Positions 22,151-60,147 of a DNA stretch of 64,000 bases are shown here, one piece after another. The DNA is from Methanomicrobia archaeon (GTDB taxonomy: Archaea > Methanobacteriota_B > Thermococci > Methanofastidiosales > NM3): contig JAUVXU010000004.1 in NCBI GenBank assembly GCA_030603445.1, positions 42,656 through 106,655 of the forward strand, written 5' to 3'. Below the pieces are notes generated by a model. That model saw only the letters and a list, made by a program, of their open reading frames with translations. It was not told the origin of the DNA and searched no databases. Positions within the stretch are counted from its first letter, which is position 1; every line of letters begins with the position of its first letter. Position numbers and translations under genes: made by a program.

Positions 22151-22188
22151 ATGAGGGGATACTATGTGCAGATTTAAAACATTTTGCG

Positions 22189-23079: not shown

Positions 23080-23280
23080 ACACTCAACTGTTTTTATCTT
23101 TTATTTTCATCTGTTTACTATGGCACATTATTACTATCAAGTTAAACACAAGAATCGTGATATTTGAATATTAATATACTTTTCTATTCACTGTTAGGAC
23201 AGAACTAAGTTGCGATTCTTATCATAAATTCCCAAACGTTACCTTGGTAGAAGAGCATATGTTGTCATTATAAAAGACGA

Positions 23281-23299
23281 TTAGGTGTTTTGTCCCAAC
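23281..23299. repeat. direct repeat copy 1 (TTAGGTGTTTTGTCCCAAC) upstream of the ASCH gene
   Basis: Matches 23919..23936 at 18/19 positions (one extra G). Found by eye. Confidence 0.7.
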
Positions 23300-23412
23300 A
23301 TATTCAAGCCCCAAATTTTAAATTAATCTGAAAATAATTTAGTAACTCTTAAATATACTTACCTACGTATTTAGACGAAATAGTACCGCAAGAAATGAGG
23401 TGAGAAAAGAAT

Positions 23413-23880
23413 ATGGGGTATGAATCTGTTAAAAAAATGTGGTCAGACTATCTTCTTTCACTTAGTGAAGATTCAGAAAACACTATCAAGGAATACTCTG
23501 TATGGCATTTCTGTAATGACGAAAAATCTGCGAATGAACTTGCAAAATTAGTAAAACTAGGAATTAAAAGAGCTACAACTTCTTCTTTATGGGCGCTTGA
23601 ACACGATAATGAATCAATTCCACATGTTGGAGAATATAGTGTAATCATTGATTGGAATGGTAAAGCACAATGTATTATACAAACAACTAAGGTAGATATT
23701 ATCCCATTTAGTGAAGTATCATCAGAATTCGCAGAAATGGAGGGGGAGGGAGATAAGTCTTTATTTTACTGGAGAGAAGTTCACAAAAAGTTTTTTGCTG
23801 AAGAATTAGAAAGTATTGGGCTTAAATTTTCTGAAGAAATGCCTGTTGTTTGTGAGGAGTTTAAAGTAATATTTCAATAG
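23413..23880 (+). CDS. ASCH-domain protein (YqfB-like)
   Basis: 155 aa. Pattern of beta-barrel residues ('VWHFCND...EL..LV..G.KRAT') is typical of the ASCH/PUA-like fold. The gene and its flanks are markedly AT-rich compared with neighbours. Confidence 0.55.
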   Translation: MGYESVKKMWSDYLLSLSEDSENTIKEYSVWHFCNDEKSANELAKLVKLGIKRATTSSLWALEHDNESIPHVGEYSVIIDWNGKAQCIIQTTKVDIIPFSEVSSEFAEMEGEGDKSLFYWREVHKKFFAEELESIGLKFSEEMPVVCEEFKVIFQ

Positions 23881-23918
23881 AAAATGCAGTATTATCTTGT
23901 CTAGCAGACAATATGCTA

Positions 23919-23936
23919 TTAGGTTTTTGTCCCAAC
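23919..23936. repeat. direct repeat copy 2 (TTAGGTTTTTGTCCCAAC) downstream of the ASCH gene
   Basis: See copy 1. The two copies bracket the ASCH gene, ~640 bp apart. Confidence 0.7.
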
Positions 23937-24094
23937 GCCTTTCTATTTAATAGGCATTAAGGCATAATTATTCTTCACAACAGTTTGCTATTATAGAATT
24001 AAAGCTAATATCGGGCTTTCTTGTAAAAGAGAAGCTGACGAAAAATAGTGCGAATTATTCTTAAATTTTTAATAATAAAAAAAGAAAAGGGATA

Positions 24095-25327
24095 TTAAGG
24101 TTTCCCTTTTCCGTTGTTTTCCTTGTCCGTATTGCCCTTGCCCTTTCCGTTGTTTTCCTTGTCGTTACCGCCATTAGAATCATTAGTGCTAACATTGTGC
24201 AGTATTTCTTTTGCCTTGATAAGCTCATTTAGTGCGGACTCGTAATCGCCTGCATCATAGTACTGCTGGGCGTTTGTGATAAGCCCATCTACCTGGGACA
24301 GCATATCTGCTACTTCCGGATAATCTACTAAAGTATCTCCATATGATTCATAAGCTGCGTCACGCTTATCTGAAACTTCGGCTATCCAGTCAAGTGCCTT
24401 TTGTGCAAGATTTCCTAGCATAGTCCCAGAGGAATCTCCCTCTTCAGAACTTGAATCAAGTATCCTAATAGCGTTGTTTGCCAATGTGTTTGCAGCGTTT
24501 GAAAGACCATACGCCCTACCGTATTTTCCTTCCTCCATAGCGGCAATAGCACGTTCGAGTTTATTAACTGCATTTGCAGATAGAACCATTACGGCCGTTG
24601 ATGGGTTGTCTGTAATGCTTGCTAGAAGCGCATTAATAGATTCCTCTGCAAGAGAGATCATCTCCTGTGCACGGGCCATGACATCTACATCGACTACATC
24701 CTCTTCTTCTGGCTCGTCTTCTGGATCTTCAGGCTCTTCCTCGTCTTCGCCATCAGCGCCTAGTGCAAGCGAATACGACGTGATGCCCTCTTTTTTAAGC
24801 TTTCCTTTCGTCTCATTCGAAACTTCATTTCCGTTTATGAAAATGATTGGGCACCCTGCCTTGAAGCTCTCGTTTAAAGCTGTGGCAATCGCATTCTCGT
24901 CTCCCCCGTTTGCTACAACAACTTTATTTTTCAATGAGTATCTATTAATCAGCCCTTCCATTGCCATGAAGCTTGTTTCCTTGCGATCTTCGCCGCCAAT
25001 TCGTACCACGTCCAAGCCTGCTAATGCGCTTTCATACTCAGAAACCACAGCCATTGGCCCCCCCAATATAAGAACTTGTGAAGGGCATAGCTGCGCGATT
25101 GCATCAGCCACGCTGGGTACAAACTGGCCCCATTCTGTATAAAATATGATTACATCTTCAATCTGATTCGCTATACTTTCAGCTACAGCGGAATCTGCAA
25201 GATTATTTGAAACCAATAAAACAGTAGTTTCGGATGAATCATCAGCAAAAGCTACAGGAATAGTGCTTCCAAGTAATAATACCATAAACACCAATGAAAT
25301 AATCAATTTTCTTATTTTTATCACCAA
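24095..25327 (-). CDS. secreted protein with two CWB2-like (cell-wall-binding repeat 2) modules, an acidic linker and a Lys/Gly/Asn-rich C-terminal repeat
   Basis: Signal peptide 'KLIISLVFMVLLLGSTIPVAFA'. 'VLILGGPMAVVS...VVRIGGEDRKETS' matches the CWB2 'RIxGxDRYxTS' signature. Poly-E/D tract 'EDEEEPEDPEDEPEEED'. C-terminal 'KENNGKGKG' tandem repeat encoded by a 23-bp DNA direct repeat at 24104..24163. Confidence 0.55.
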   Translation of the reverse strand: MVIKIRKLIISLVFMVLLLGSTIPVAFADDSSETTVLLVSNNLADSAVAESIANQIEDVIIFYTEWGQFVPSVADAIAQLCPSQVLILGGPMAVVSEYESALAGLDVVRIGGEDRKETSFMAMEGLINRYSLKNKVVVANGGDENAIATALNESFKAGCPIIFINGNEVSNETKGKLKKEGITSYSLALGADGEDEEEPEDPEDEPEEEDVVDVDVMARAQEMISLAEESINALLASITDNPSTAVMVLSANAVNKLERAIAAMEEGKYGRAYGLSNAANTLANNAIRILDSSSEEGDSSGTMLGNLAQKALDWIAEVSDKRDAAYESYGDTLVDYPEVADMLSQVDGLITNAQQYYDAGDYESALNELIKAKEILHNVSTNDSNGGNDKENNGKGKGNTDKENNGKGKP

Positions 25328-25586
25328 ATACCAATAAATAAATTGTTGTATTTAAGATTTTTCGTTGAAACAATCATGTATTCTAAAAAAAATAAAAATT
25401 ATTAATATTTAAATAATTTTACAATAGTTTTAACTTGTTTCAAGTTGTTCATACCACATAAATACTAGTTATTTTTGGATATATGGGCCATATTATGTTT
25501 TATTTATAATATGGTATAATATCTGCACGTTTCTTGTTCGAAAAAGAGAATCATAAGAAATCAATGTTATTTAATGAGCAACGCCG

Positions 25587-26891
25587 CTAATCCTTTTCGA
25601 TCAAGGGGGCGGTAAAATAAAAGGTTGCTCCCTTTCCCATTTCACTTTCCACCCACAGTTTTCCATCTATCTTTTCGACCATCTTCTTGACCGTTGCCAG
25701 CCCGATCCCGGTTCCTTTTTCCTTCTTGTCGCCCAATCTCTCAAACAACATGAATATCTTGTCAACATAGCGCATATCAATGCCTATCCCATTATCCTTT
25801 ATAGAGAATAGGTATCCCGATGGTTCCTCTTCTATAGTGACCGTGATTTGTACATCGTCGTCGTCTTTCGAAAACTTTATAGCGTTTGTCAACAGATTGC
25901 CTATAATAAGTGAAAAAACAAGTTTTGAGTTGTATATTGTAGATATATCGCTCTCTATATTGAACTTGACATTCTTGTAAGGAAACATATCACGTGCGCG
26001 ATTGTACTCCTCTGTAATCAAATTGCATATGTCGAACTCTTCCTTTCTTGTAGAGCTTTTCTGGATATTGTAGTAGGATACCAGATCATTTAACAGCCGA
26101 TTCATCTTGTTAGCATTGCCTATCAGGCGTTTTATTACTTCTTTCGTATCCTCAGACAATTCAAAACCAATATCTTCCACAAGAATTTCAATTAATGCCC
26201 TAATCGATACAAGTGGCGTCTTGAGATCGTGCGTTAACGAGGAGATATATGTTTGGAGCTCAAAGTTTTGTTCCTCAAGCTGCTTTGTCTTGTGCTCTAT
26301 CTCAATTGCCAGGCGTTTGTTAAAGTCCTTTTGTTTCCCAAATACCTGGGCATTTCGTATGGCAATGGATACTTGATTGGCAAAAAGCTCTAACATCCTT
26401 ATGTCTTCGATATCAGGGGCTTTTCCATCAATGGGATTATCCACATTGAGAATGCCCAACCATCTGTTCTTTGCGCGTATTGGGATCATGAGAAAATCAT
26501 CGCCCTGCCATTTAGACAGGTCCTCATAAACACCATTTCCTATAAGCATCCTCTCTTTAATTTGCTTTGGAACGATGTCCATATGATTGGACATCTCCCG
26601 CGCATAAAAAGAATTGGATATCTTAAACTCAGGTATCTTATACCACTGCGTCCATGCAGAAGGAGAGGACTTTAATATTTTCTCCCTGATATTGTCCGGC
26701 ATGCCCCTTGCAGCCATAGGGCGCGATATCTTCGTTCCCTCGCTGCGAAGCACAATAACTGCCTGCCCCCATCCAAGATTCTTTGTAACAGCAAGGCATA
26801 TTATATCCAATAGTTCGCTAATATCAAGATTAGCACGCATTTTTTCAGAGATTTCTAATATCTTAAGTAAAAGATCTTGGTAATTTCTCAC
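25587..26891 (-). CDS. sensor histidine kinase (GAF-type N-terminal sensor + HisKA + HATPase_c)
   Basis: H-box 'SLTHDLKTPL'. N, G1 and G2 boxes 'NLLTNAIKFS', 'DNGIGI' and 'GTGIGLA'. No TM segment. No cognate receiver gene adjacent. Confidence 0.8.
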   Translation of the reverse strand: MRNYQDLLLKILEISEKMRANLDISELLDIICLAVTKNLGWGQAVIVLRSEGTKISRPMAARGMPDNIREKILKSSPSAWTQWYKIPEFKISNSFYAREMSNHMDIVPKQIKERMLIGNGVYEDLSKWQGDDFLMIPIRAKNRWLGILNVDNPIDGKAPDIEDIRMLELFANQVSIAIRNAQVFGKQKDFNKRLAIEIEHKTKQLEEQNFELQTYISSLTHDLKTPLVSIRALIEILVEDIGFELSEDTKEVIKRLIGNANKMNRLLNDLVSYYNIQKSSTRKEEFDICNLITEEYNRARDMFPYKNVKFNIESDISTIYNSKLVFSLIIGNLLTNAIKFSKDDDDVQITVTIEEEPSGYLFSIKDNGIGIDMRYVDKIFMLFERLGDKKEKGTGIGLATVKKMVEKIDGKLWVESEMGKGATFYFTAPLIEKD

Positions 26892-27017
26892 AATATTTGT
26901 TTTGTAATCTTACATATATACTTTTCTGCATAATAGTTTAGTATATTAATACCAAAAAACAAATATATTTTAATATAATAAAATATATAAAATATTTCCG
27001 TTTATTCATCAAAATTA

Positions 27018-29117
27018 TTATATCAATGTGGAATTCCCTGTAGTGCGCAAATCATCCTTCTCTGAGACCATTATGCCAACTTCCTTTTTTATATTAACAG
27101 CGGTTTTTCTGCCCAATATTCTCTCAAGTCGGCCAAGAGGAGCTTTTCTTATGTCGCCTTTTGTACGTATATTCAAGTTATAGAGTTTTCGAGCACGCAC
27201 ACGCCCTATCCCTTTTATCAGTGTTAGCTCCAGAAGGTCGGGGCCAACACCATTTTTTATCCTGAACACAATTTTATACAAATCATCATGGGAGTAATTG
27301 AACGTTTTTGCGATCTCCTTGAACGCATATGATATCCACTCAGCATTTTCGCGTATCCTTATCAAATCGCCTGGCCCAATATCATACTTTTCACATATAT
27401 TGCGCTCCGGCACCTCAGATATCCAGTCCAGCAAAACTGAGGCTGTCTTCACTTCAGAAAGGAAGAACTCATACTTATCTGGTTCATACCAGGAGTCGGG
27501 GACCTCAATTAGAAAATCATCTTTCATCTCGTGCACTAAAAAGTCATAATCCTCAAACTCCCCTTTTCTCAAATAGAACGTGGGCATGTCGGGTGTATGA
27601 CAAATAGCATGAAGCATTCCGAGAATCTGCATGTTTTCTTTTAATGCACCCTTAAGGCATATTCCTGAAAGCGGATCTATATACAGGTCATTTACCCTTT
27701 TTCCAAATAGCGTTGACCTAATTATTTCTTCACCCTCCACCAAGGCATGTTCCTGGAGAAATTCTAACGTTAAGGCAACCTTTTCCATAACAGTATCTGT
27801 GCCAAACTGATGCGAATAGAACGTCTTTTCAAAAAATGCATATAGGTCCTTGGATGTCGTTTCAGGGTTGCACAAAGAAAGAACATGTCTGCGAAGGGCG
27901 TCTTCTGAGGAAAGCTTGGAAGTTATACGCTCGGTCGGGGCGTTGATATACGTATCAAATAGCATTGTGCACTGGGACGGGGACTTTGCCATTAGTATGG
28001 CCTCCCCATATGTATCAAAGCGCGGCCTTCCTGCACGACCCATCATCTGCTGTATTTCAAGATTTGAAATAGGTCTATTTCCAAGATTTATATCAAATCG
28101 CCGCCAATCCCTAACGACAACCCTTCGTGCAGGGAGATTTATGCCTGCTGCAAGTGTTGGTGTGGCAACGATTACGCGTATCACGCCCTTTTTAAAAAGC
28201 TCCTCGACAAGCGCCCTATCCTCTCGAGCCATTCCCGCATGATGAAATGCAACACCGCCACTTAAACACTCCACAAGCTTATCTCCCAGCTGGGAATCAG
28301 ACGCCGAATGCGCATCGCAGCTTTCGCCTTGTTTCTTATTGTAGAGTGCTATACGTCTTGCCACAGCCTGTGTGGAACGGCGCGAGTTCACAAAGACCAA
28401 CACCTGCCCGTCATCGCGCATACCGTCTGCCACAAGGGACAGGGTATCATCAACCAAAGGCTTAATGGCATGCAGAGAATTGTCATCATATGTTATGCTG
28501 TTTTCGGAAAAAACACCTTTTTTCAGCGTGACCGGACGCCAGTCCGAAACCACAAGCTCTGCACCAAGCCACTCTGCAATTTCAGAAGCATTTGATATTG
28601 TAGCAGATAGTGCCACTATCTGCTTATGCTTCATCTTTACCATCACGACTTCAAGAGTAGGGCCGCGATTAACGGAATGAAGCAAATGGACCTCGTCTAC
28701 GACAAACAAAGATACATCATCAAACATACGCATCTGATGGCGCATAAGAGAATCAAACTTCTCCGAAGTTGTCACGACAACATCAAAATCCCTGAGCCAT
28801 GTGCCGCCTGAATCATAGTCCCCTAAGGAGAGGGCCACATTCAGTCCTATCTGCTTGAGCTCCCTAAACTTCTCCTCTGCCAAAGCCTTGAGAGGAACTA
28901 CATATATTGCCTTTTTACCGCGCTGTATGCAGCGAATTATCGCAAGATAAGCAAGCAGTGTCTTGCCGGATGCCGTAGGGATTGCCACCACAATATTTTT
29001 CCCCTCTAAAAAACCAGTCTTAAGCGCATCCTCCTGGGGGGGAAAGAACGAGGTATATCCCATCTTTTCAAATCGCGAAATGAATTCTTGTGATAGGCCA
29101 ATATCCCTCATATCCAT
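27018..29117 (-). CDS. hel308: Hel308/Hjm Ski2-like DNA helicase
   Basis: Walker A 'PTASGKT'. DExH 'VVDEVH'. Motif VI 'QMMGRAGR'. C-terminal wH, ratchet and HLH domains. 699 aa. Confidence 0.85.
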   Translation of the reverse strand: MDMRDIGLSQEFISRFEKMGYTSFFPPQEDALKTGFLEGKNIVVAIPTASGKTLLAYLAIIRCIQRGKKAIYVVPLKALAEEKFRELKQIGLNVALSLGDYDSGGTWLRDFDVVVTTSEKFDSLMRHQMRMFDDVSLFVVDEVHLLHSVNRGPTLEVVMVKMKHKQIVALSATISNASEIAEWLGAELVVSDWRPVTLKKGVFSENSITYDDNSLHAIKPLVDDTLSLVADGMRDDGQVLVFVNSRRSTQAVARRIALYNKKQGESCDAHSASDSQLGDKLVECLSGGVAFHHAGMAREDRALVEELFKKGVIRVIVATPTLAAGINLPARRVVVRDWRRFDINLGNRPISNLEIQQMMGRAGRPRFDTYGEAILMAKSPSQCTMLFDTYINAPTERITSKLSSEDALRRHVLSLCNPETTSKDLYAFFEKTFYSHQFGTDTVMEKVALTLEFLQEHALVEGEEIIRSTLFGKRVNDLYIDPLSGICLKGALKENMQILGMLHAICHTPDMPTFYLRKGEFEDYDFLVHEMKDDFLIEVPDSWYEPDKYEFFLSEVKTASVLLDWISEVPERNICEKYDIGPGDLIRIRENAEWISYAFKEIAKTFNYSHDDLYKIVFRIKNGVGPDLLELTLIKGIGRVRARKLYNLNIRTKGDIRKAPLGRLERILGRKTAVNIKKEVGIMVSEKDDLRTTGNSTLI

Positions 29118-37601: not shown

Positions 37602-38822
37602 TTATTTTACAGGCTGACCCTGTTCACGGGTCCATCGCTGCGATTCACCACGCACCACCATATCTATGGCGCCAACAGGGCATACAACAGCGCAGAGTGC
37701 GCATCCAAGGCACTCCTCGTCATCAATGTCGTTTATCTTCGGGACCTTTATTGCCCCTCCGCCAGTATCGCCGCATGCCACCGTGCACCTATTGCAGTGA
37801 AGGCATTTTCCAACGTCCACTTCAGGGTATAGGTGGTCCTCGACCTCGAGATCCTCATATGATGTCACCGCGTCAAGTGCGACTCCCACCATATCAGCGA
37901 CGGTATCATACCCCTGCCCATCCATAAACTCAAGTGTCTTTCGCTTCCATTTCTCCACAATCCCAAAGCCATACCACATGGCTGCTGTGACATTCTGGGT
38001 CGTTGCTGCGCCAAGCATTATGTGCTCTACAGCATTTTTCCAGCTGTCAATGCCGCCTACCCCGGAAATTGGCAGCTTCACCTCTTTTGCAAGCTCGGCA
38101 ACTATGCGAAGGGCTATAGGGCGTACCTGCGGGCCGCTGTTGCCTGAGACCAGTCCCCTTCCAAGAACGTTTGGCGCCACCACCTTTTGGTAGATATCAA
38201 CATCTATTATCCCTGCAACAGTGTTAATGGCTGCAAGCGCATCTGCGCCCCCCTTCTTTGCGGCCTTTCCCATCTGCACTATATCTGTGACGTTTGGCGT
38301 AAGCTTTGTCATCACAGGTATTGACACCTCGTCCTTTACCGCTTTTGTCACCCCGTGGACTAGCTGCGGGTCCTGCCCTATGAACATGCCCATATGCTCC
38401 TCCGGGCATCCGTGGGGGCAGGATACGTTTAGCTCTATTATGCTTGCGCCATGCTCCTCGCACCATCTTCCAAGTGCTGCCCAATCGTCAAGATCGGGTG
38501 TTGCCATTATCGATACTATAAACGGCGCCTTGGTATCCTGCAGCACCTTTATCTCCTTATCCCACCACTCAAGGCCATGTGTTGTTATAAGCTCGCAGTT
38601 CTGCAGACCGTAAAGTGAGTTATGGCGCCTTGCGCCCATAAGGCGCGGCCTGACATCCGGCCTGACGTTCTTGTCAAAAGACAGTGTCTTGACGACGCAA
38701 GAGCCCCATCCCTTATCAATTATCTTACGCATATGCTCCCCAGTAAGTGTCGGAGACGCAGACCCTATAAAGAACGGATTGTCAAATTCTATTCCTAAAA
38801 ACTCTGTTCGTAATGATGCCAT
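37602..38822 (-). CDS. PreA-like dihydropyrimidine dehydrogenase catalytic subunit paralog 1 (DHOD-family TIM barrel + C-terminal 2x[4Fe-4S])
   Basis: 'NVSCPHGCPEEHMGMFIGQDPQLVH...IPVMTKLTPNVTD...GGADALAAINT' aligns with E. coli PreA from memory ('NFSCPQM...MGSDVGQSPELVE...LPMLAKMTPNIGD...GGADGIAAINT'). C-terminal 'CLGCALCAVVCPVGAI' is a ferredoxin motif. The ORF is open to 38885, but M22 at 38822 gives the conserved N-terminus 'MASLRTEFLGIEFDNP'. Confidence 0.75.
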   Translation of the reverse strand: MASLRTEFLGIEFDNPFFIGSASPTLTGEHMRKIIDKGWGSCVVKTLSFDKNVRPDVRPRLMGARRHNSLYGLQNCELITTHGLEWWDKEIKVLQDTKAPFIVSIMATPDLDDWAALGRWCEEHGASIIELNVSCPHGCPEEHMGMFIGQDPQLVHGVTKAVKDEVSIPVMTKLTPNVTDIVQMGKAAKKGGADALAAINTVAGIIDVDIYQKVVAPNVLGRGLVSGNSGPQVRPIALRIVAELAKEVKLPISGVGGIDSWKNAVEHIMLGAATTQNVTAAMWYGFGIVEKWKRKTLEFMDGQGYDTVADMVGVALDAVTSYEDLEVEDHLYPEVDVGKCLHCNRCTVACGDTGGGAIKVPKINDIDDEECLGCALCAVVCPVGAIDMVVRGESQRWTREQGQPVK

Positions 38823-38826
38823 TTCC

Positions 38827-40056
38827 TCACACCCCCTTCTCCACTGGCGGCCCTTGTTCACGGGTCCATCGCTGCGATTCACCACGCACCACCATATCTA
38901 TGGCGCCAACAGGGCATACAACGGCGCAGAGTGCGCACCCAAGGCATTTCTCATCATCTATGTCGTTTAGATAAGGGGTTGTTATGGCGCCTCCTCCCGT
39001 GTCCCCACAGGCTATCTTGCATCTCTGGCATTGCACGCACACATCGTCGTTTACTTCAGGATACAGATGGTCCTCGACCTCAAGATCCTCATAACTGCTA
39101 AGAGACGGCAGTGCAAGGCCAATTAGCTCGTCTACCGATTCGTAGCCTTCCTCGTGCATGAACTCAAGCATACGGCGCTTCCATTCCTGGACAAATCCAA
39201 ATCCCTCAAACATCGCCTCCGTTACCACCTGAACAGTGGATGCGCCAAGCATCATCATCCCGATAGCTGCCTGCCAGCTGTCAATGCCGCCTATTCCTGA
39301 AATTGGCAGCTTTACGTTTTGTGCAAGGTCTGCAACCCACTTGTACGCAATCATACGCACAGACGCTCCGCTGTTGCCGGAGATGGTGCCATGTGTTAGC
39401 ACCATTGGCGCAGGAAGCCTTTTGTATATGTCAACAGCATTTATGCCTGCAATAGTATTAATGGTGGATAGCGCATCTGCGCCCCCTTTCTTTGCAGCCT
39501 TTCCCATCTGCACTATATCTGTGACGTTTGGCGTAAGCTTTGTCATCACAGGTATTGACACCTCGTCCTTTACCGCTTTTGTCACGTCATGGACTAGCTG
39601 CGGGTCCTGGCCTATGAACATGCCCATATGCTCCTCCGGGCATCCGTGGGGGCAGGATACGTTTAGCTCTATTATGCTTGCGCCATGCTCCTCGCACCAT
39701 CTTCCAAGTGCTGCCCAATCGTCAAGATCGGGTGTTGCCATAATGGAGACCATCATCGGGGCATCAAGCCCTTTTAGCATCCTCAACTGCCCTTCCCACC
39801 AATCAAGATTGTGTGTGGTGATAAGCTCGCAGTTCTGCAGATTTATTATATTAGAATAACGGCCAATACCATTTAGGCGCGGCCTGACATCCGGCCTGAC
39901 GTTCTTGTCAAGGGACAGTGTCTTAACGACATAGGACCCCCATCCGGCATCGACTATCTTTCGCATATGTGCTCCGTCAACAGTAGGGGATGCGGAGCCT
40001 ATGATTAGTGGATTATCCATCTCAAATCCCAAAAACTCAGTTCTTAAATCTGTCAT
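38827..40056 (-). CDS. PreA-like dihydropyrimidine dehydrogenase catalytic subunit paralog 2
   Basis: Same architecture as paralog 1. A ~95-aa central block and the last ~30 aa are identical to paralog 1, while other regions are ~50-60% identical. Confidence 0.75.
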   Translation of the reverse strand: MTDLRTEFLGFEMDNPLIIGSASPTVDGAHMRKIVDAGWGSYVVKTLSLDKNVRPDVRPRLNGIGRYSNIINLQNCELITTHNLDWWEGQLRMLKGLDAPMMVSIMATPDLDDWAALGRWCEEHGASIIELNVSCPHGCPEEHMGMFIGQDPQLVHDVTKAVKDEVSIPVMTKLTPNVTDIVQMGKAAKKGGADALSTINTIAGINAVDIYKRLPAPMVLTHGTISGNSGASVRMIAYKWVADLAQNVKLPISGIGGIDSWQAAIGMMMLGASTVQVVTEAMFEGFGFVQEWKRRMLEFMHEEGYESVDELIGLALPSLSSYEDLEVEDHLYPEVNDDVCVQCQRCKIACGDTGGGAITTPYLNDIDDEKCLGCALCAVVCPVGAIDMVVRGESQRWTREQGPPVEKGV

Positions 40057-51910: not shown

Positions 51911-52600
51911 ATGTATATGAAGAATCTAACATCTTACCAGGAAGATATGATACGTGTTCTAGTCGAATCACGGGCACTGTCATTTGGCGAGTTCACACTT
52001 AAGAGCGGACGCATCTCACCATATTTTTTCAATATGGGAAGAGCAATATCCAATGGGATGTATCTTGCGACCGTGTCGCGATGCTACTGCGAGAAGCTTA
52101 TAGACTGCGTAGGCAATGATTTCACTTTCATCTTTGGTCCCGCATACAAGGGCATCCCGCTTGCATGCGCAATAGCGCACACTCTCTGGAGGGAGTTTGA
52201 AGTGGCTGTCAGGTGGGGATATGACAGAAAGGAGGAAAAGACATATGGTGACACCCGCGATGCCGCACTTGTAGGGAAGCTTTGCAGCAAGGACAAGGTG
52301 ATCATGGTGGATGATGTCATCACCACCGGCGACACCAAGATAGAGTCATGGAAAAAGCTTCTTGCGTTAGATAGTACATTAATCCCAAAAGGCGTTCTTG
52401 TTGCCGTTGATCGTGAGGAAAAGGACAAAAATGGCAAAATGCCAGTAAAAATACTAAAAGAAGCCGGGCTGGATTTTTTCTCCATACTAAAGGCTTCTGT
52501 TATCTTCGACTATTTGCACGATGTGAAAATAGACGGAAAGATCATCGTGAACGATGACCTATACGAACGATACCAAGACTACAGGCGCCGCTACAATTAG
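51911..52600 (+). CDS. pyrE: orotate phosphoribosyltransferase
   Basis: PRPP-binding motif 'VIMVDDVITTGDT'. 229 aa. Confidence 0.75.
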   Translation: MYMKNLTSYQEDMIRVLVESRALSFGEFTLKSGRISPYFFNMGRAISNGMYLATVSRCYCEKLIDCVGNDFTFIFGPAYKGIPLACAIAHTLWREFEVAVRWGYDRKEEKTYGDTRDAALVGKLCSKDKVIMVDDVITTGDTKIESWKKLLALDSTLIPKGVLVAVDREEKDKNGKMPVKILKEAGLDFFSILKASVIFDYLHDVKIDGKIIVNDDLYERYQDYRRRYN

Positions 52601-54072
52601 AATCTAAAGACATCAAGTATTCCGTAAAGGAAGCTTACTATGCCTTGAGTACCCCCATTGATACGGTGCTGTATCACTGATGACACCTGGCCCCTCATAG
52701 TATCGATTGGCCATGTTACCTTCCATTCCTGGGGTTCTTTAAAGACTGCTAGGTAACCTGACATCCTGAAGTAAAACACCAAGAGACGATACATTGGGAG
52801 TAGCAGCACATACTGGAAGCTATCGCTTATTGCGCCCCGCGTGTCCTTATCCGAGATAGTGTATGCTGCTAGTGTCTGTGCTACATCAAAAATCACATAA
52901 AACACGAACAGCACTACGAAAAACAGCGCTATTACGCTTTGTGAGTATCCAAATAGCGGGAATAGCAGCAATAGGAATGTCCATATGATACGAGGGAATG
53001 CAAGCGTATGGTCTATCATTAGCATCGAAGGAAGCCCAAACCTTCCAATAGTTCCATACTTATTAGAACCTATCATGTTCTTGTGTACGCCTGCGACCTC
53101 TAGTTGCCCCCGCCTCCAGCGTACGCGCTGGGCATATAAGGCCCCAGTTTCAATGACCGGTTCCACCCATACCTTTGCATCAGGGGCGAATCCGACCCCA
53201 ATGCCATGCTGATGGAGATCAAGGGAGATGTCAAAATCCTCTGACACTGTTAGATCGGAGTAAATGTGCGTCTTCTCCAAGGCTTCTTTTCTAAACGCAC
53301 TAAAAGCGCCTGAAAGCATATACTCCGAGTTCACGGCGCTTTGGTAATGGCGGCCAAGCCTAAATGAGTTCAAGTATTCAAGGAACTGGCTCTTTGCAAG
53401 AATAGATTCAAAAAACGACATCTTCTTCTCTATAGGGTTGCCGTCCTCATCCAAGATAAGGTCTCCTTCCTCATCGCGCGCCTCTAATAAGTGCCAGTTT
53501 ACCTCTATAACACCGCATGCGGCCCCTTTATCGGGATTTTCCAGCAAGTATACGACCATTTTGCGAATTGCGTTTAAGTCAAGCACGACATCTGAGTCTA
53601 TTGTCATTACTATATCGCCGTGCGCGTGGCGAATTCCCGTATTTAAGGCATGCGCCTTTCCCCTATTTGACCCATTGGAAAACAGGCGAATTGAACCTTT
53701 AAACTCTGATACTGACATGAAGTCGCCGTTGATCTTTACCTTGTTGTTGCCGTTGCCCTCTATGTTTGCAAGCGTTATGTCTGATGTAAGGTCTATTGAA
53801 CCATCATCAACCACGAGTATCTCCATCTTGTGCTGCGGATAGTCTTGCAGCTTTAGGGAGTTGAGGCAGCGCTCAATTATCTTCTCCTCATTATAAGCAG
53901 GGATGATAATAGACACGTTTGGCATGTCGTCGTCTGTATATTTGTCAGTTGATGTCTTGTTCTTTGAGAATATCACGGCGCCTACCCTAAGCATTGCGCC
54001 AACACCATCAAGGGCAAGAGGTATGAGGATCCATACACCCCATATCAAAAGCGAACGTATTAGAGGTGACAT
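52597..54072 (-). CDS. processive family-2 glycosyltransferase (cellulose/chitin/PNAG-synthase-like), membrane-embedded
   Basis: 'VSIIIPAYNEE', 'VDDGS', 'DSD' and 'QRVRWRRGQLE' (QxxRW). N- and C-terminal TM helices. Confidence 0.8.
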   Translation of the reverse strand: MSPLIRSLLIWGVWILIPLALDGVGAMLRVGAVIFSKNKTSTDKYTDDDMPNVSIIIPAYNEEKIIERCLNSLKLQDYPQHKMEILVVDDGSIDLTSDITLANIEGNGNNKVKINGDFMSVSEFKGSIRLFSNGSNRGKAHALNTGIRHAHGDIVMTIDSDVVLDLNAIRKMVVYLLENPDKGAACGVIEVNWHLLEARDEEGDLILDEDGNPIEKKMSFFESILAKSQFLEYLNSFRLGRHYQSAVNSEYMLSGAFSAFRKEALEKTHIYSDLTVSEDFDISLDLHQHGIGVGFAPDAKVWVEPVIETGALYAQRVRWRRGQLEVAGVHKNMIGSNKYGTIGRFGLPSMLMIDHTLAFPRIIWTFLLLLFPLFGYSQSVIALFFVVLFVFYVIFDVAQTLAAYTISDKDTRGAISDSFQYVLLLPMYRLLVFYFRMSGYLAVFKEPQEWKVTWPIDTMRGQVSSVIQHRINGGTQGIVSFLYGILDVFRF

Positions 54073-54684
54073 TTATTCTCCCCCCTTTCCTCGGGCAATT
54101 GCATCATTTACCACTTTCTTGCCCACTATGTTAATAGTTGGTTTAGTTATTATATACCAATATATGAACAGGACGAACACGAAAAACACCATTCTAGATA
54201 TCACAGAATGAGCCAGGTATGTGTACTCCTCTCCATAATTATGCGTGACACCAGCAATTATGCAAAGACGAATTATGTTTGCAACATACGTCAGTGCTAC
54301 ACCTAGCACTGCTGAAAAGACCTTCCTCTTGGCAACAAATCCCACATAGAAGAATATCAGCGAGAAGATAACGGAAAGCTCCAGAAGCGCCGAGCACTCT
54401 ATAGAGCATATCAGCACAGCCCATCCTGTAGGTGATGGGATAAATAGCTGATTGCTTTGGACATATCCATCAAATCCGAACTGTTGCAATAGGAAAACGG
54501 TGTGATTTAGCTCTATGTTGGCCAGTTTCGTATCATATCCTAAATTCATAAAAGCAAGGATGATAAAAAGTGTGAGTCCAAATGATCCTACTAGGTAGTA
54601 CAAAAGCCACTGCCTCTTTGAGTGAAGATATACAGTGACCAGCCCCCAAATAATCAGTAGTACAAACAGGAACATCCAGTTCAT
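54073..54684 (-). CDS. archaeosortase/exosortase-family membrane protein (short form)
   Basis: 203 aa polytopic. Candidate catalytic Cys in 'LICSIECSALLE'. Conserved Asn/Arg 'VANIIRLCIIAG' (NxxR). Stop abuts the GT2 start and its start overlaps the upstream gene by 4 nt. Confidence 0.5.
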   Translation of the reverse strand: MNWMFLFVLLIIWGLVTVYLHSKRQWLLYYLVGSFGLTLFIILAFMNLGYDTKLANIELNHTVFLLQQFGFDGYVQSNQLFIPSPTGWAVLICSIECSALLELSVIFSLIFFYVGFVAKRKVFSAVLGVALTYVANIIRLCIIAGVTHNYGEEYTYLAHSVISRMVFFVFVLFIYWYIITKPTINIVGKKVVNDAIARGKGGE

Positions 54685-55829
54685 TTGCCATCACATCCTT
54701 TTAGATTCAACACGCCATTCTTTCTCATGGAGTATCCTACTATTAACAGCAGCATGGCCAATAGCCCGATAAATCCAAGCGTGCCTAGGGAAGGGATGTA
54801 GTAAAAAGAAGCACATGACGGTCCTGCGATTATATGTGAAGGCTCGCCTGAATTGACATTTGTCTTTTGCCAGTACACACAGACCCGAAAGTCCTTTCGT
54901 AGATCGTCAGGTGTAAGGTAGAACGAGAAGTACTCGGTTGTGGTATCTCCTGGCTTCATAGTCTGTACGCCGACATTCTTGTACCTATGGTAAGGATATC
55001 CATCGTCGGTAGGATACGTTGCAACAAAATTGTTATTCTCATCATACACGTACAAGAACAGGCTGGTGTTTGACTGGGTGTTTGCCGCCGCCAGGTCGAC
55101 GCGCACAGTAATTCCGCCTGTATCTGTGTTGACAGATACTGAAGTGAAGATGACGTCGCTTTGTGTGCCTGTTGCAAATGAGTAAGTAGGACTTGTGTAA
55201 CTGCCTGTGCTATCTGTTGCAACAACGTACCATGAATATGTCGTATTGCTCTCCAGATAGCTCCATACCGTAGTAGCGGTTCCACTGCCGGTCACGGTAT
55301 CGGTGCCAATAGGTGTGTTGCCTTCCAAGTTGTAGAAGTTCACAGTGACAGTTCCTGTACCTCCTGCAATGTCTATACTAAGTGTAGTACTAGGCCCTAT
55401 TCCAGAAACTCCCGATGGCGCGGGATTTGAAAAGTCTATGCCTGGGGCACGGGTTGTGAAAGACCAGGTACCACTCGTAAGAAGAACTGTATTTGGATCG
55501 GCGTTATCTGCTACTGTGACGTACCAGGAGTAAGAGGTTGAGGGGCTTCTTCCTGGCCACTGCACGGTCGCAACGTCTACTGAATTTTGCTTTGTGGTGA
55601 CTACAGCAGAACCTAATAATGTTGATTCGCCATAAAATTTTACTAGATACTCCTTATTGTTAGCTCCATCCACTTCCACCACAAGATCCGGTGTTAAGCT
55701 GACATCTGTAGCACCATTTGCCGGTGATGGGTTCAAAACCTCAACTGTTGGTACGGCCGCTACCATCGCAATCCCAAAAGATCCAAGTAACAAACCGACT
55801 ATAATTATTACAAACACTTTATACTTCAC
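54681..55829 (-). CDS. secreted Ig-like/fibronectin-like repeat surface protein with C-terminal TM anchor + basic tail (putative sortase target)
   Basis: Signal peptide. Repeated 'SYSWYV(T/V)' beta-sandwich units rich in T/S/G. C-terminus 'YIPSLGTLGFIGLLAMLLLIVGYSMRKN'. Confidence 0.6.
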   Translation of the reverse strand: MKYKVFVIIIVGLLLGSFGIAMVAAVPTVEVLNPSPANGATDVSLTPDLVVEVDGANNKEYLVKFYGESTLLGSAVVTTKQNSVDVATVQWPGRSPSTSYSWYVTVADNADPNTVLLTSGTWSFTTRAPGIDFSNPAPSGVSGIGPSTTLSIDIAGGTGTVTVNFYNLEGNTPIGTDTVTGSGTATTVWSYLESNTTYSWYVVATDSTGSYTSPTYSFATGTQSDVIFTSVSVNTDTGGITVRVDLAAANTQSNTSLFLYVYDENNNFVATYPTDDGYPYHRYKNVGVQTMKPGDTTTEYFSFYLTPDDLRKDFRVCVYWQKTNVNSGEPSHIIAGPSCASFYYIPSLGTLGFIGLLAMLLLIVGYSMRKNGVLNLKGCDGK

Positions 55830-56056
55830 AGTAATCGCCCCAATGCAGGCATGTGTTTCTTGGAAGCCATATATAAAATATAAGAAACAGAGTTCTTTTA
55901 ATTACTAGTAACAGTTAATAAAAAAATTTATAATATTTTGTTTAGATTAATTAATTGATAAAAATAACGCTCTAAAATACCATTCAAATAAAGTATAACC
56001 TGTATAAAAGAAAATAATAAAAAAATAGGAACTTAAAAATAAAAAAAAGCAATATT

Positions 56057-57505: not shown

Positions 57506-57583
57506 GGGCTCTTGGTCTAGCTTGGTTATGACGTCGCCTTCACACGGCGGAGGTCCTGGGTTCGATTCCCAGAGAGCCCACCA
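57506..57583 (+). tRNA. tRNA-Val (anticodon CAC), genomically encoded CCA
   Basis: Manual fold. Acceptor GGGCTCT/AGAGCCC. D-arm GTCT..TGAC. Anticodon stem TCGCC/GGCGG with loop TTCACAC. T-arm CTGGG-TTCGATT-CCCAG. Discriminator A followed by CCA. Confidence 0.9.
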
Positions 57584-57668: not shown

Positions 57669-59078
57669 TTACTTTCCAACGCCTTTCTTCTCCATCTTTC
57701 CCCATCCCCTAGAACCAAACGCATATTCTATTGTAGCACGAAAGCGCCACCATGTCTGTAATTGGCGATAACCGATATTTTCCAAAAAAGCGGCGCAAAA
57801 AAGGTGCAGGAGATGCGACGTCTTCGGGTATTTCTTAAATGACAGCTCCTCCAGTATAACAGATGTGATAGAAAGCACCATCCCGTAAAGAACTGCAACA
57901 GTCAGAAACATGATGGCAAAAGGCAAGCTAACAATACCAAACAATGCTGACAAAATAAACACAATGTACCCGCTAAATTCGACAAACGGCCCGAGCATCT
58001 CAAATATCACAAAGTAGGGGAATGCAAAAAATCCCACCCAGCCATAATCGGTGTTTAGGAACATATCTTTATGTAGCATTATTGATTGTATCGTTCCCTT
58101 CTGCCAACGAACGCGTTGGCTCCTAAGCACTTTCAACGTTTCTGGTGCCTCTGTCCAGCACACCGGATCTGGGACAAATGTGATGCGTGTATTTGGGTTT
58201 TGACGCCTGAGTATCTTATGCATCCTAACCACTAGTTCCATATCCTCCCCGATACAGCCTGCCCTATATCCGCCCACCTTCAGAACAGCATCTTTTGAGA
58301 AGCACCCAAACGCGCCGGAAATAATAAGCATGGCATTAACCGCATCAAATCCTGTCCTGCCGAACAAAAATGCCCTGAGGTACTCCACGACCTGGAACTT
58401 TCCTATAAATTTTTTTGGTGGGGCAATTTCTAGTACTCTGCCCTGTTCCACTTTGCACCCATTTGCTATACGGACAATTCCTCCTACTGCAATGACATTT
58501 TCGTCCTCTACGAAAGGCCGGACCACCTTTAAAAGACAGTCGCGCTCGAGGATGGAATCCGCATCTATGACACATATCAATGGATCCTTAGATGCGTTTA
58601 TGCCTGTGTTTATGGCATCTGCCTTTCCTCCATTCTCCTTATCTATTACCAAAAGAGACGGATGCTCTTTTGATCTGTAAAATCCCCTCACAGGCATTGT
58701 ATCAATACTATCCACCATGCCATACGGGACCCGCTTCATGGAGAAGTGGGATATTAAATTATTTAAGGTATCATCTTTTGAACCGTCGTTGACGACTATT
58801 ACGTGAAAATCAGGGTACTCAAGCTGTAAAAAAGCGCTGGTGCTATTAATTATGCTATTGCCTTCATTATATGCTGGCACTATAACAGAGACAGCTTTTG
58901 TATTTCCATAACGAAACAGGTCCTTTATATCTATGTAAGAGACCTTTGCCGAATATTTTCTTATTGTCTTAAATGAAACAAAGCATAGGACAAAATAAAT
59001 CGTGCCTATTGTAAGCAGATATGTAAGCGCAAAATAATTGTAGATGTATAAAGCTCCTATTATGCTTATATTAACCAC
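57669..59078 (-). CDS. processive family-2 glycosyltransferase (PgaC/cellulose-synthase-like) with N- and C-terminal TM helices
   Basis: 'VSVIVPAYNEG', 'VVNDGS', 'DAD' and 'QRVRWQKGTIQ' (QxxRW). Confidence 0.8.
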   Translation of the reverse strand: MVNISIIGALYIYNYFALTYLLTIGTIYFVLCFVSFKTIRKYSAKVSYIDIKDLFRYGNTKAVSVIVPAYNEGNSIINSTSAFLQLEYPDFHVIVVNDGSKDDTLNNLISHFSMKRVPYGMVDSIDTMPVRGFYRSKEHPSLLVIDKENGGKADAINTGINASKDPLICVIDADSILERDCLLKVVRPFVEDENVIAVGGIVRIANGCKVEQGRVLEIAPPKKFIGKFQVVEYLRAFLFGRTGFDAVNAMLIISGAFGCFSKDAVLKVGGYRAGCIGEDMELVVRMHKILRRQNPNTRITFVPDPVCWTEAPETLKVLRSQRVRWQKGTIQSIMLHKDMFLNTDYGWVGFFAFPYFVIFEMLGPFVEFSGYIVFILSALFGIVSLPFAIMFLTVAVLYGMVLSITSVILEELSFKKYPKTSHLLHLFCAAFLENIGYRQLQTWWRFRATIEYAFGSRGWGKMEKKGVGK

Positions 59079-60147
59079 CTACCTTCATGTCTGTGAGCAG
59101 GATTCTTGTAACAGAGGCCGCCTTTTTGTTCTTTGAATGTTGTGCAATTACTGAAAGTGCCTCCCTTCCTTTCCTTGACAAGCTAAACAGCGCCTCTGCT
59201 GCACGGTAGCGCACCCACCAGTTTTCGTCGCCAAGATATACTACAAGCTCTTCCTCTACTGAATCATCACCAATCCTTCCCAAGGCCCATATTGCAAGGC
59301 TGCGAACACGCCAGTCTGCATCATTCATGCATTCCCTTAAAGATGGCATGGCGCCCAAATACTCTATTTTACCCACGGCCCTTATACAATTAATGCGGAC
59401 ATCATACCCTGGTGTCGCATCCAGGATGCATAATATCTCCTCGCCTGCAGGATAGTATCTGTAGTGCCCTAGCGCGTCCACGATAAGTGAGATGGAAAAC
59501 GCATCTGGCTCCCCTTTCAGATACCATAACAACGGCTGGCAAGCGTCAGTGCCAAACTCGAACAATATCGATAGCAAAAGATCCCTGCTTGGTTTTTTTC
59601 TGATGCGAAACTGCCCCAGGATTATTCCAAGCGTATCTATGGCCCCGATTTTCGCTAAGCTAAGGGCGCAGTTAAAATATACCCCTTCGTCCTTATCCTC
59701 CAAGCCCCGTATTAGGTGTTCTTTCGCCTGGCGGGCCCTTACCAACCCGATAAAGAAAGCGGACTCGCTACGGACCTGTTCGTCTCCGTGTACAAGCTGA
59801 TCTATTAAACATGAAAAAAGGTCTGTATTAGTGACTAGTGCAGATAACTTCTCAAAATCATCTCCCTTCAGCGCGAGCAGATAGCTTTTCAAAAAGTGCT
59901 GGAAGTAAGCATAACGGGCCCTTGGAACGAGAGCCATGATCTCTTGGGTGGTTTTTTCACCTTCAAGGTACTGAAAAACCATCTTCTCCCATCCCGCGTA
60001 AAGCTTAAACTGCTTTTTTTTAGAACTGTTGCTTACGAATCGCAAGAAGAAGCAGTACAGTATCAACATCCCTACAACAAACAAGAGCGCAAGTACTGCC
60101 ATTGTGGTGGTCCAAAGAGCCCCTTGATTGAAGAACTTCCCTATCAT
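59071..60147 (-). CDS. HEAT/PBS-lyase repeat protein with N-terminal TM anchor
   Basis: N-terminal TM 'ALWTTTMAVLALLFVVGMLILYCFFL'. Repeated 'VRxxAxxALGxIG' HEAT-like units. Overlaps the GT2 start by 8 nt. Confidence 0.6.
   Translation of the reverse strand: MIGKFFNQGALWTTTMAVLALLFVVGMLILYCFFLRFVSNSSKKKQFKLYAGWEKMVFQYLEGEKTTQEIMALVPRARYAYFQHFLKSYLLALKGDDFEKLSALVTNTDLFSCLIDQLVHGDEQVRSESAFFIGLVRARQAKEHLIRGLEDKDEGVYFNCALSLAKIGAIDTLGIILGQFRIRKKPSRDLLLSILFEFGTDACQPLLWYLKGEPDAFSISLIVDALGHYRYYPAGEEILCILDATPGYDVRINCIRAVGKIEYLGAMPSLRECMNDADWRVRSLAIWALGRIGDDSVEEELVVYLGDENWWVRYRAAEALFSLSRKGREALSVIAQHSKNKKAASVTRILLTDMKVGG

Follow-up and report, generated by a model that had tools for sequence, protein, structure and literature searches.

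Three adjacent genes in a 64-kb stretch of an archaeal contig (JAUVXU010000004.1; the whole stretch is hereafter termed the window) raise the question of whether a surface protein, the enzyme that would process its C-terminus and the synthase of a glycan are combined in a single dedicated system and, if so, to what the processed protein is joined. The three open reading frames (ORFs) lie on the minus strand, as do all features described within them, at 54681..55829 (gene 1, 382 aa), 54073..54684 (gene 2, 203 aa) and 52597..54072 (gene 3, 491 aa). A link between exosortases and exopolysaccharide loci has been drawn by genomics since 2006, and a preliminary description, prepared from the sequence of the window, had proposed that the three genes are a compact archaeal analogue of such loci. 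Here we present evidence that they probably constitute a co-transcribed, dedicated sortase-substrate-glycan-synthase module of the exosortase G (XrtG) type in a Candidatus Methanofastidiosia archaeon. The cassette is indeed compact and archaeal but it is not without a name, being a divergent member of the catalogued Firmicutes XrtG system with the same gene order.

An XrtG-like enzyme of the exosortase family

Gene 2 encodes an XrtG-like member of the exosortase family, a predicted intramembrane cysteine protease/transpeptidase with five transmembrane (TM) helices. The protein passes the profile check that had been proposed for it, exceeding the cutoffs of both the exosortase/archaeosortase model TIGR04178 (45.9 bits, cutoff 23) and PF09721 (31.9 bits, cutoff 25.7). 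The best subfamily is XrtG (TIGR03110) at 78.4 bits, 47 bits above the next, XrtX, at 31.1 bits. Related sortases score 69–95 bits on the XrtG model and a paralog-type relative from Methanofastidiosia, P0112, passes its curated cutoff (105.9 vs 102.75 bits). P0112 (locus L011, 7001-8308) is 302 aa in length with a ∼100-aa C-terminal extension and is followed by a 116-aa, highly charged, coiled-coil-like ORF, the glycosyltransferase (GT2) gene and, directly after the latter, a PTPS_related GT-C protein.

The triad inferred for the exosortase/archaeosortase superfamily is Cys/Arg/His (Haft 2023, bioRxiv 10.1101/2023.06.07.544157), and in a 56-sequence alignment of the family these residues and an Asn are near-invariant within proteins that are otherwise 32–60% identical. 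Cys97, the putative nucleophile (codon 54394..54396, within IECSALLE), is Cys in 48/56 and Ser in 8/56 homologs, and Glu96, Ser98, Glu102, Asn136, Arg139, His159 and Arg164 are invariant. Asn136 and Arg139 belong to the NIIR motif of TM4 (54268..54279) and His159 and Arg164 to the HSVISR motif at the start of TM5 (54193..54210), with the Arg164 position occupied by Lys in three loci from the genome scan described below (L026, L030 and L031). The preliminary description had drawn its candidate Cys from 'ICSIEC' and its candidate Asn and Arg from 'NIIRL'. The second Cys of the former (Cys97) is the conserved residue while the first (Cys93) is not, and although Asn136 and Arg139 are each present in 56/56 sequences, the third member of the triad is His159 (also 56/56) and not Asn.

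An AlphaFold model of the gene 2 protein calculated from the family alignment (pLDDT 88, pTM 0.77) has five TM helices, and a sheet of three strands immediately precedes Cys97. A profile search of PDB sequences returned no solved-structure counterpart and the best Foldseek match had an E no better than 0.33. By the positive-inside rule, HSKRQ, AKRK and a Lys-rich C-terminus would be located inside and acidic loops outside. Combined, this charge distribution and the structure model suggest that Cys97, Asn136/Arg139 and His159/Arg164 are situated at the extracytoplasmic membrane boundary, the same boundary as that predicted for the substrate motif.

The C-terminal tail as a candidate sorting signal

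Gene 1 encodes the precursor of a secreted FN3/Ig-like surface protein, the putative sortase substrate. Its tail has the tripartite arrangement previously ascribed to it, consisting of a signature motif, FYYIPSLG (residues 342-349, 54783..54806), which would be the region of recognition and cleavage, a TM helix, TLGFIGLLAMLLLIVGYSM (residues 350-368, 54726..54782; hydropathy 2.27-2.61, modelled helix 351-370), and a basic cluster, RKN (residues 369-371). The protein does not terminate at the basic cluster, however, continuing for 11 residues as a predicted cytoplasmic extension, GVLNLKGCDGK, with the stop codon overlapping the sortase start (cluster and extension, 54684..54725). A comparable extension, GLSFKGGERK, is present in the tail encoded by the archaeal locus L002.

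Approximately 30 loci were gathered by exact-protein look-ups, a genome scan and from a plasmid collection, and the about 21 distinct related loci counted below are the non-Firmicutes members, derived from Archaea, Actinomycetota, Chloroflexota and unclassified genomes. In 20 of these, the sortase gene is immediately preceded by a same-strand gene, usually overlapping it by 4 nt, for a protein that ends in motif, TM helix and basic cluster. Seventeen tails associated with Cys-type sortases, originating from Archaea and Actinomycetota, can be aligned on the proline and define the class [FY][YF](S)[IV]P-x-[LM]-G, with P, I/V at position −1 and L/M at +2 each found in 17/17 and G at +3 and Y/F at −3 each in 16/17. 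Archaeal representatives are CASFYYIPSLG, CCYFVPSLG, YYYVPVMG, SCYYVPTLG, DYSVPSLG and CHSIPTLD, those of Actinomycetota/Coriobacteriia conform to (Q/E)F[YF]SIP[TAV][LM]GWPLF, and four loci, from Chloroflexota and one unclassified genome, carry QWSPA[NS][AV]LG.

None of these tails is represented in curated libraries. The window tail, five other archaeal tails and the actinobacterial and Chloroflexota tails, together with the full-length proteins, gave no meaningful CTERM match against NCBIfam at E≤10, the models that fail to match the window tail including PGF-, PEF-, PEP-, PIP-, IPTL-, VPXXXP-, GlyGly-, MYXO- and Firmicu-CTERM. The closest approaches in the tail scans were to IPTL-CTERM (12.6 bits, cutoff 20.5) and, for the isolated L001 tail, to LPXTG_anchor (18.3 bits), a match limited to the TM/basic part (model positions 10-33) and falling to 14.0 bits, under the cutoff, with the full-length protein. 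The earlier suggestion that P-S-L-G marks an undescribed recognition motif is supported, as no curated CTERM model matches and the motif is conserved beside the sortase in about 20 loci from two domains of life.

In a six-frame scan covering the window and all loci, the motif followed by a TM helix was detected only upstream of the sortase, with one occurrence per locus, two in L020 and none in L005. No second tail of this type was found in the 64-kb window, the pattern expected for a dedicated system. The preliminary description had looked to other proteins with a similar tail as a check on the signal. None is present in the window, but such an absence is unfit to refute a system of one enzyme and one target.

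Dedicated one-enzyme/one-target systems are recognised by gene adjacency, and differing anchors on homologs of the passenger constitute criterion 8 for a sorting signal (Haft 2023, bioRxiv 10.1101/2023.06.07.544157). In the window, the motif abuts the TM helix, the basic cluster lies near the C-terminus, a signal-peptide-like segment is present at the N-terminus and target and enzyme are adjacent. The passengers of the window protein and of an actinobacterial target are unrelated, with alignment confined to the tail, and the FN3/Ig repeat of the window protein also occurs in other archaeal surface proteins, the distant passenger homologs P0129-P0137 ending in different anchors, some of them PGF-like. 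The adjacency, tail-only conservation and alternative anchors of passenger homologs agree with the published criteria for one-to-one systems, and for this reason we consider sortase and substrate to be probably a dedicated pair.

Co-variation of enzyme and tail

The putative nucleophile and the tail vary together. WSPA[NS][AV]LG tails are accompanied by a Ser-type (ESSG) sortase in 4/4 cases and [IV]P-x-[LM]-G tails by a Cys-type (ECS) sortase in 17/17. The Ser-type subclade, with VESSGLLE in place of IECSALLE, comprises proteins P0014, P0113, P0115, P0117, P0118 and P0121-P0123, and its loci are L013 (5757-7615), L026 (∼4000-5600), L030 (∼4250-5579) and L031 (∼4000-5519). As judged from these substitutions, the subclade may represent a serine-nucleophile exosortase lineage in which the tail has changed in concert.

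A physical connection between tail and enzyme is observed in L020, a contig labelled Saccharibacteria with a G+C content of 0.38. A tail-bearing protein (…NTFYSVPTFLG followed by a TM helix) runs in frame into a sortase domain (15-1676) with neither a basic cluster nor a stop codon between them. Whether real or an assembly artefact, this continuous ORF may be regarded as a Rosetta-stone-type fusion linking tail to enzyme. A second, stand-alone protein of L020 (3056-4390) ends in …FTSVPTLGW-TM-KK, and no GT2 gene is found within 5 kb in this locus.

The glycan synthase

Gene 3 encodes a membrane-embedded, processive-type GT2 glycan synthase with TM segments at residues 3-21 and 357-398. All four motifs of processive β-glycan synthases are present, VVDDGS at residue 89, DSD at 159, SED at 277 and QRVRW at 315-319, the last bearing out the QxxRW assignment made previously. 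The best NCBIfam match is to the XrtG-associated glycosyltransferase model, TIGR03111, at 273.9 bits with PgaC/IcaA next at 130.7 bits, and the Pfam domains PF00535 (101.9 bits) and PF13632 (64.4 bits) are detected. Wherever the flanking sequence suffices, L020 excepted, the sortase gene is followed by a GT2 ortholog.

Relationship to named systems

A 'complete Exosortase G system' has been defined as a Firmicu-CTERM sorting-domain protein, XrtG and two XrtG-associated glycosyltransferases (PMC12854382). In Lactococcus lactis (plasmid pBV60) and Lachnospira eligens the order is the same as in the window, a Firmicu-CTERM protein being followed by xrtG and the TIGR03111 glycosyltransferase, with the addition of a QueD-like gene and a large GT-C-like membrane protein. 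No QueD-like gene was detected in the 64-kb window by tblastn. The Aneurinibacillus locus matches in xrtG and glycosyltransferase only, as the upstream gene encodes an unannotated hypothetical protein with no Firmicu-CTERM match. The systems resemble each other in having a ∼200-aa, five-TM exosortase, a multi-TM GT2 and one target per locus, and the window sortase shares the motifs ECS(G/A)..E, N..R and H..(I/V)(G/S)R with Firmicutes XrtG, the annotated Firmicutes copies having H..IGR. They differ in the tail, which is Gly/Ser/Thr-rich in canonical Firmicutes targets (ITGGSTGG, INTAGASSG) and aromatic-[IV]-P-x-L-G in the window. The Firmicu-CTERM model (TIGR04145, 191 positions) scores canonical proteins at 154.5 and 94.4 bits.

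Cassettes from Actinomycetota/Coriobacteriia (L006/L027, JAQIBK010000266.1; L021, OY968780.1) are also XrtG-like, their sortases being 33–42% and their GT2 orthologs 43–48% identical to those of the window. The tail class, F[YF]SIP[TAV][LM]GW-TM-RRR, and the 4-nt substrate/sortase overlap are as in the window class. In contrast, the ∼900-aa substrates carry an N-terminal 'ITIDGNFDDW' module unrelated to the FN3/Ig repeats of the window protein, and their GT2 is invariably succeeded by a GT-C protein of the PMT_2 type, unlike that of the window. At NCBI the proteins of these cassettes are named just 'archaeosortase/exosortase family protein' or 'hypothetical'. More generally, a GT-C-like membrane protein (PTPS_related or PMT_2) is carried by most of the related loci, with the closest relatives of the window cassette lacking one nearby. 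An '(I/V)xIDGxFDDW…YLY' module is common to the actinobacterial and Ser-type substrates (L006 864-3584, L008 3224-6004, L010 3380-6004, L013 5757-7010) and to canonical Firmicu-CTERM proteins (L015 5261-5923, L016 5046-6791). In the actinobacterial and Ser-type substrates the module is N-terminal, far from the tail and undetected by TIGR04145, and it is absent from the archaeal substrates.

A neighbour-joining tree places Firmicutes XrtG outside a clade comprising the Ser-type (Chloroflexota-containing), actinobacterial and archaeal enzymes. Bootstrap support is 100/100 for the archaeal core clade that includes the window enzyme and 35/100 for monophyly of all archaeal copies.

The named archaeosortases, ArtA of Haloferax volcanii, which recognises PGF-CTERM, and ArtB-ArtF, belong to the same superfamily (TIGR04178) and have the same inferred Cys/Arg/His chemistry and a motif abutting the TM helix. 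ArtA is larger and has many substrates, unlike the dedicated window system, which is operonic with a GT2 and has no PGF or PEF motif, and gene 2 scores only 22.5 bits against ArtD (cutoff 125), 21.3 against ArtC (100) and 19.1 against ArtF (150). XrtA/EpsH PEP-CTERM systems similarly place an exosortase-family enzyme amid exopolysaccharide genes (Haft 2023, bioRxiv 10.1101/2023.06.07.544157). Unlike the window system they pair one enzyme with many targets, depend on an outer membrane context and use the PEP motif, and gene 2 matches their models at 18–20 bits against cutoffs of 105–208.

The precursor and its passenger domains

The gene 1 protein, which initiates with GTG, has an exact match in a metagenome-assembled genome (MAG) at NCBI, and orthologs at 83–86% identity retain the tail; comparison with NCBIfam gave no family match at E≤1. 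Residues 1-25, (M)KYKVFVIIIVGLLLGSFGIAMVAA (55755..55829), resemble a signal peptide with a hydropathy peak of 2.82 at residues 5-23, and the protein would be exported by Sec. The AlphaFold model is all-β, comprising two confident domains (pLDDT 80–93, residues ∼30-220) and a third at lower confidence. The confident domains are tandem FN3/Ig-like β-sandwich repeats, residues ∼30-125 and ∼130-220 (55170..55742), also evident in an internal repeat alignment, and Foldseek matched the model to tandem FN3/Ig-like arrays with E of 1e-9 to 1e-7. Ser and Thr account for 25.7% of the ectodomain. The initial portrayal of a secreted, T/S-rich, Ig-like repeat protein is in keeping with these features.

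The third, C-terminal β domain (residues 226-341, 54807..55154) precedes the tail and contains Cys317 and Cys339. BLASTP of the window substrate against that of the Methanofastidiosia locus L001 gave an E of 5e-10 over this domain plus the tail. The archaeal substrates (window, L001, L002, L011, L017 and L018) conserve one Cys in an 'xCVYW' strand and another 1–5 residues before the tail motif, the latter in the contexts SCASFYY, ACCYF, SCNTYYY, SCYY, QCTDCH and VCTTDY. The corresponding positions of bacterial substrates are devoid of Cys (NVTATW … TTQFY). The archaeal Cys pair may form an extracellular disulfide beside the cleavage site, in an anaerobe.

Cassette layout and genomic setting

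The ATG of gene 2 and the TGA of gene 1 share 4 nt in an ATGA overlap (…AAATGAAC…), and the TAA of gene 2 directly abuts the ATG of gene 3 with a GGGGGAG purine run in front, confirming the tight coupling, a 4-nt overlap followed by a zero gap, reported previously. Gene 1 is preceded by a 227-bp, AT-rich intergenic region (55830..56056) with TATA-like runs near the start codon, the putative promoter region of the unit, and gene 3 is followed by a convergent phosphoribosyltransferase gene. The spacer and the convergent gene therefore delimit a compact three-gene unit. A promoter/terminator scan yielded counts no higher than shuffle expectation, using a bacterial sigma-70 model that is uninformative for an archaeon.

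The ORFs are real genes and not the product of chance, since public MAGs and metagenomes contain copies that are exact or at least 83% identical, and synteny of the cassette extends to other archaeal contigs. Flanking genes are archaeal, encoding aIF-1A, RIO kinase, a KH/Pno1-like protein, aldehyde:ferredoxin oxidoreductase, adenylosuccinate lyase, Hel308, Hef and IleRS, and this neighbourhood recurs with the cassette in at least four other archaeal contigs in which the sortases are 51–60% identical. Bacterial contamination of the MAG is ruled out by the archaeal housekeeping flanks and the synteny, and on the same grounds the cassette is no obvious mobile island. Its host is a Candidatus Methanofastidiosia archaeon, in which it occupies a conserved core-genome location.

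Other features of the window were noted. A second multi-TM GT2 of 469 aa (57669-60147, minus strand) matches PgaC/IcaA best (144 bits) as well as Chitin_synth_2, and its gene shares 8 nt with that of a 358-aa protein carrying a TM segment at the N-terminus and HEAT/PBS-lyase-type repeats at the C-terminus. The possibility that this pair belongs to the system was rejected, since the syntenic loci L001, L002 and L005 do not have it beside the cassette, and it appears to form an independent polysaccharide module. A tRNA-Val (anticodon CAC; 57506-57583, plus strand), the sole RNA gene found in the window, is situated between the second GT2 and the gene for adenylosuccinate lyase. At 37602-40056 (minus strand), the stretch of highest G+C content (0.52), two tandem paralogous ORFs (427 and 409 aa) encode dihydropyrimidine dehydrogenase PreA-like proteins, each joining a dihydroorotate-dehydrogenase-like domain to a 4Fe-4S dicluster domain at the C-terminus. 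The two C-termini are almost the same in sequence and the ORFs, as listed, overlap by 59 nt. The G+C content is low at 22000-28000 (0.37–0.40, vs about 0.45 elsewhere), a segment encoding a 410-aa protein with a weak match to the cell-wall-binding family CWB2, a GAF-domain histidine kinase and a DUF7343/TrmB-type regulator, and this segment may be laterally acquired or surface-related.

Proposed mechanism and alternatives

With family membership, conserved residues, gene order, motif conservation, sortase-tail co-variation and GT2 coupling established, the following series of events can be proposed for the module. The FN3/Ig-like precursor would be exported by Sec through its N-terminal signal peptide and held transiently in the membrane by the C-terminal helix, with RKN in the cytoplasm, an orientation that would position FYYIPSLG at the outer membrane face. 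There, the XrtG-like enzyme, in which the outer ends of TM3, TM4 and TM5 would bear Cys97, Asn136/Arg139 and His159/Arg164, respectively, would recognise [FY]Y-[IV]-P-x-[LM]-G and remove the helix via a Cys97-acyl intermediate, after which the mature protein would be transferred or released. Our preferred guess for the acceptor, which is speculative, is a glycan or lipid-linked glycan produced by the co-encoded processive GT2. A glycan is favoured because sortase-GT2 adjacency is near-universal across two domains of life, and such a linkage might tie the surface protein to an exopolysaccharide layer. A biological role in a cell-surface matrix or in aggregation is likewise speculation.

A number of observations weigh against the assignment of the cassette to a dedicated XrtG-type module. 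Both enzymes fall below the curated cutoffs of their best models, gene 2 for XrtG (78.4 vs 102.75 bits) and gene 3 for TIGR03111 (273.9 vs 363.95 bits). Firmicu-CTERM does not match the window substrate at E≤10, nor the other archaeal, actinobacterial or Chloroflexota targets, and a large GT-C-like protein (PTPS_related/PMT_2/TIGR03766) is absent from the 64-kb window as determined by tblastn with five queries and by Pfam searches of large ORFs. The pairing with a tailed protein also has irregularities. The contig of L005 ends 450 nt upstream of the sortase and those 450 nt encode the end of an unrelated, untailed protein, and in L017 (4786-5001) a gap of about 215 nt separates the tailed protein (…CHSIPTLD…, with Asp for Gly) from the sortase. 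The topology proposed for the sortase would be inverted by the L020 fusion, which may be an assembly artefact, and the same locus, having no GT2, indicates that coupling to glycan synthesis is not absolute. Finally, exosortase chemistry is extrapolated from Haloferax ArtA, and proteolysis by an XrtG-type enzyme would, to our knowledge, be without precedent.

The precedent of ArtA, the sole experimentally studied member of the superfamily, furnishes the main rival to a glycan acceptor. As ArtA couples cleavage to lipid attachment (PMC6098224; bioRxiv 10.1101/2023.06.07.544157), the window sortase could exchange the C-terminal helix for an archaeal prenyl lipid, the GT2 polysaccharide then being bound or organised non-covalently by the anchored protein. 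The occurrence in L020 of a sortase and tailed proteins with no GT2 fits this outcome. We nevertheless consider it unlikely, as a generic lipid acceptor leaves unexplained the near-strict adjacency of sortase and GT2, seen in at least four phyla of two domains and mostly accompanied by a GT-C-like enzyme, and the bacterial members would require a lipid other than the archaeal one. That adjacency would also fit a quite different role for gene 2, as a non-proteolytic subunit of a polysaccharide synthesis/export machine, an EpsH-like scaffold, in which case gene 1 would remain anchored by its helix and the motif would be structural. The lack of biochemical data on XrtG leaves room for such a role and C-terminal TM anchors are common among archaeal surface proteins. 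However, a scaffold does not account for essentially invariant Cys/Arg/His and Asn residues in a family that is 32–60% identical, for conservation of the tail motif on unrelated passengers or for a nucleophile that co-varies with the motif, and the motif leads straight into the TM helix, as in PEP-, PGF- and GlyGly-CTERM signals (Haft 2023, bioRxiv 10.1101/2023.06.07.544157). We rank a scaffold below the lipid acceptor in likelihood.

It is more improbable by far that the tail is processed by an enzyme encoded elsewhere, such as another archaeosortase, a rhombosortase or an Rce1-like protease, with the XrtG-like gene adjacent by coincidence. The visible portion of the genome is 64 kb, leaving room for such an enzyme, and many methanogen-lineage archaea encode several archaeosortases (PMC6098224). 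On the other hand, the tail matches no PGF, PEF, PIP, VPXXXP, GlyGly, MYXO or other CTERM model at E≤10, its adjacency to the sortase recurs in bacteria without archaeosortases, and the enzyme-tail co-variation and the L020 fusion are at odds with remote processing.

Returning to the dedicated XrtG-type module, a more far-reaching version can be formulated. The tails would define an unmodelled, interdomain sorting class, IPxLG-CTERM, with WSPA..LG as a sister form, served by a non-Firmicutes branch of XrtG that covalently joins a surface protein to the GT2 polysaccharide, and the Cys-to-Ser subclade would be serine-protease exosortases in which the nucleophile is tuned to the tail. Taken as a whole, this version is rather doubtful.

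Significance

The machine itself is of a known kind, the exosortase family, XrtG type, and some archaeal copies are already labelled by annotation pipelines, either as 'XrtG' or as 'archaeosortase/exosortase family protein'. The novelty lies in the archaeal setting, with the cassette at a conserved position in the core genome; in a substrate family and tail motif that curated libraries lack and that uncultured Actinomycetota share; and in the link between nucleophile and motif. The 'Gram-positive' exosortase type is thereby extended to Archaea, in Methanofastidiosia and two other archaeal MAG lineages. We know of no experimental work on XrtG of any kind. About 20 tail sequences could seed a new sorting-domain model, with the result that targets would no longer be annotated 'hypothetical protein'. 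The module is a minimal form, with one substrate, one enzyme and one synthase, which makes the question of the exosortase acceptor approachable experimentally, helped by homologs in tractable Firmicutes (Lactococcus plasmid pBV60 and L. plantarum) and by the natural Cys/Ser switch that tracks the tail. If the Ser subclade is as proposed, exosortase-family enzymes would also be able to act as serine proteases and, if the acceptor is a glycan, protein-to-glycan transpeptidation would occur in Archaea, by a logic akin to that of sortase A and peptidoglycan.

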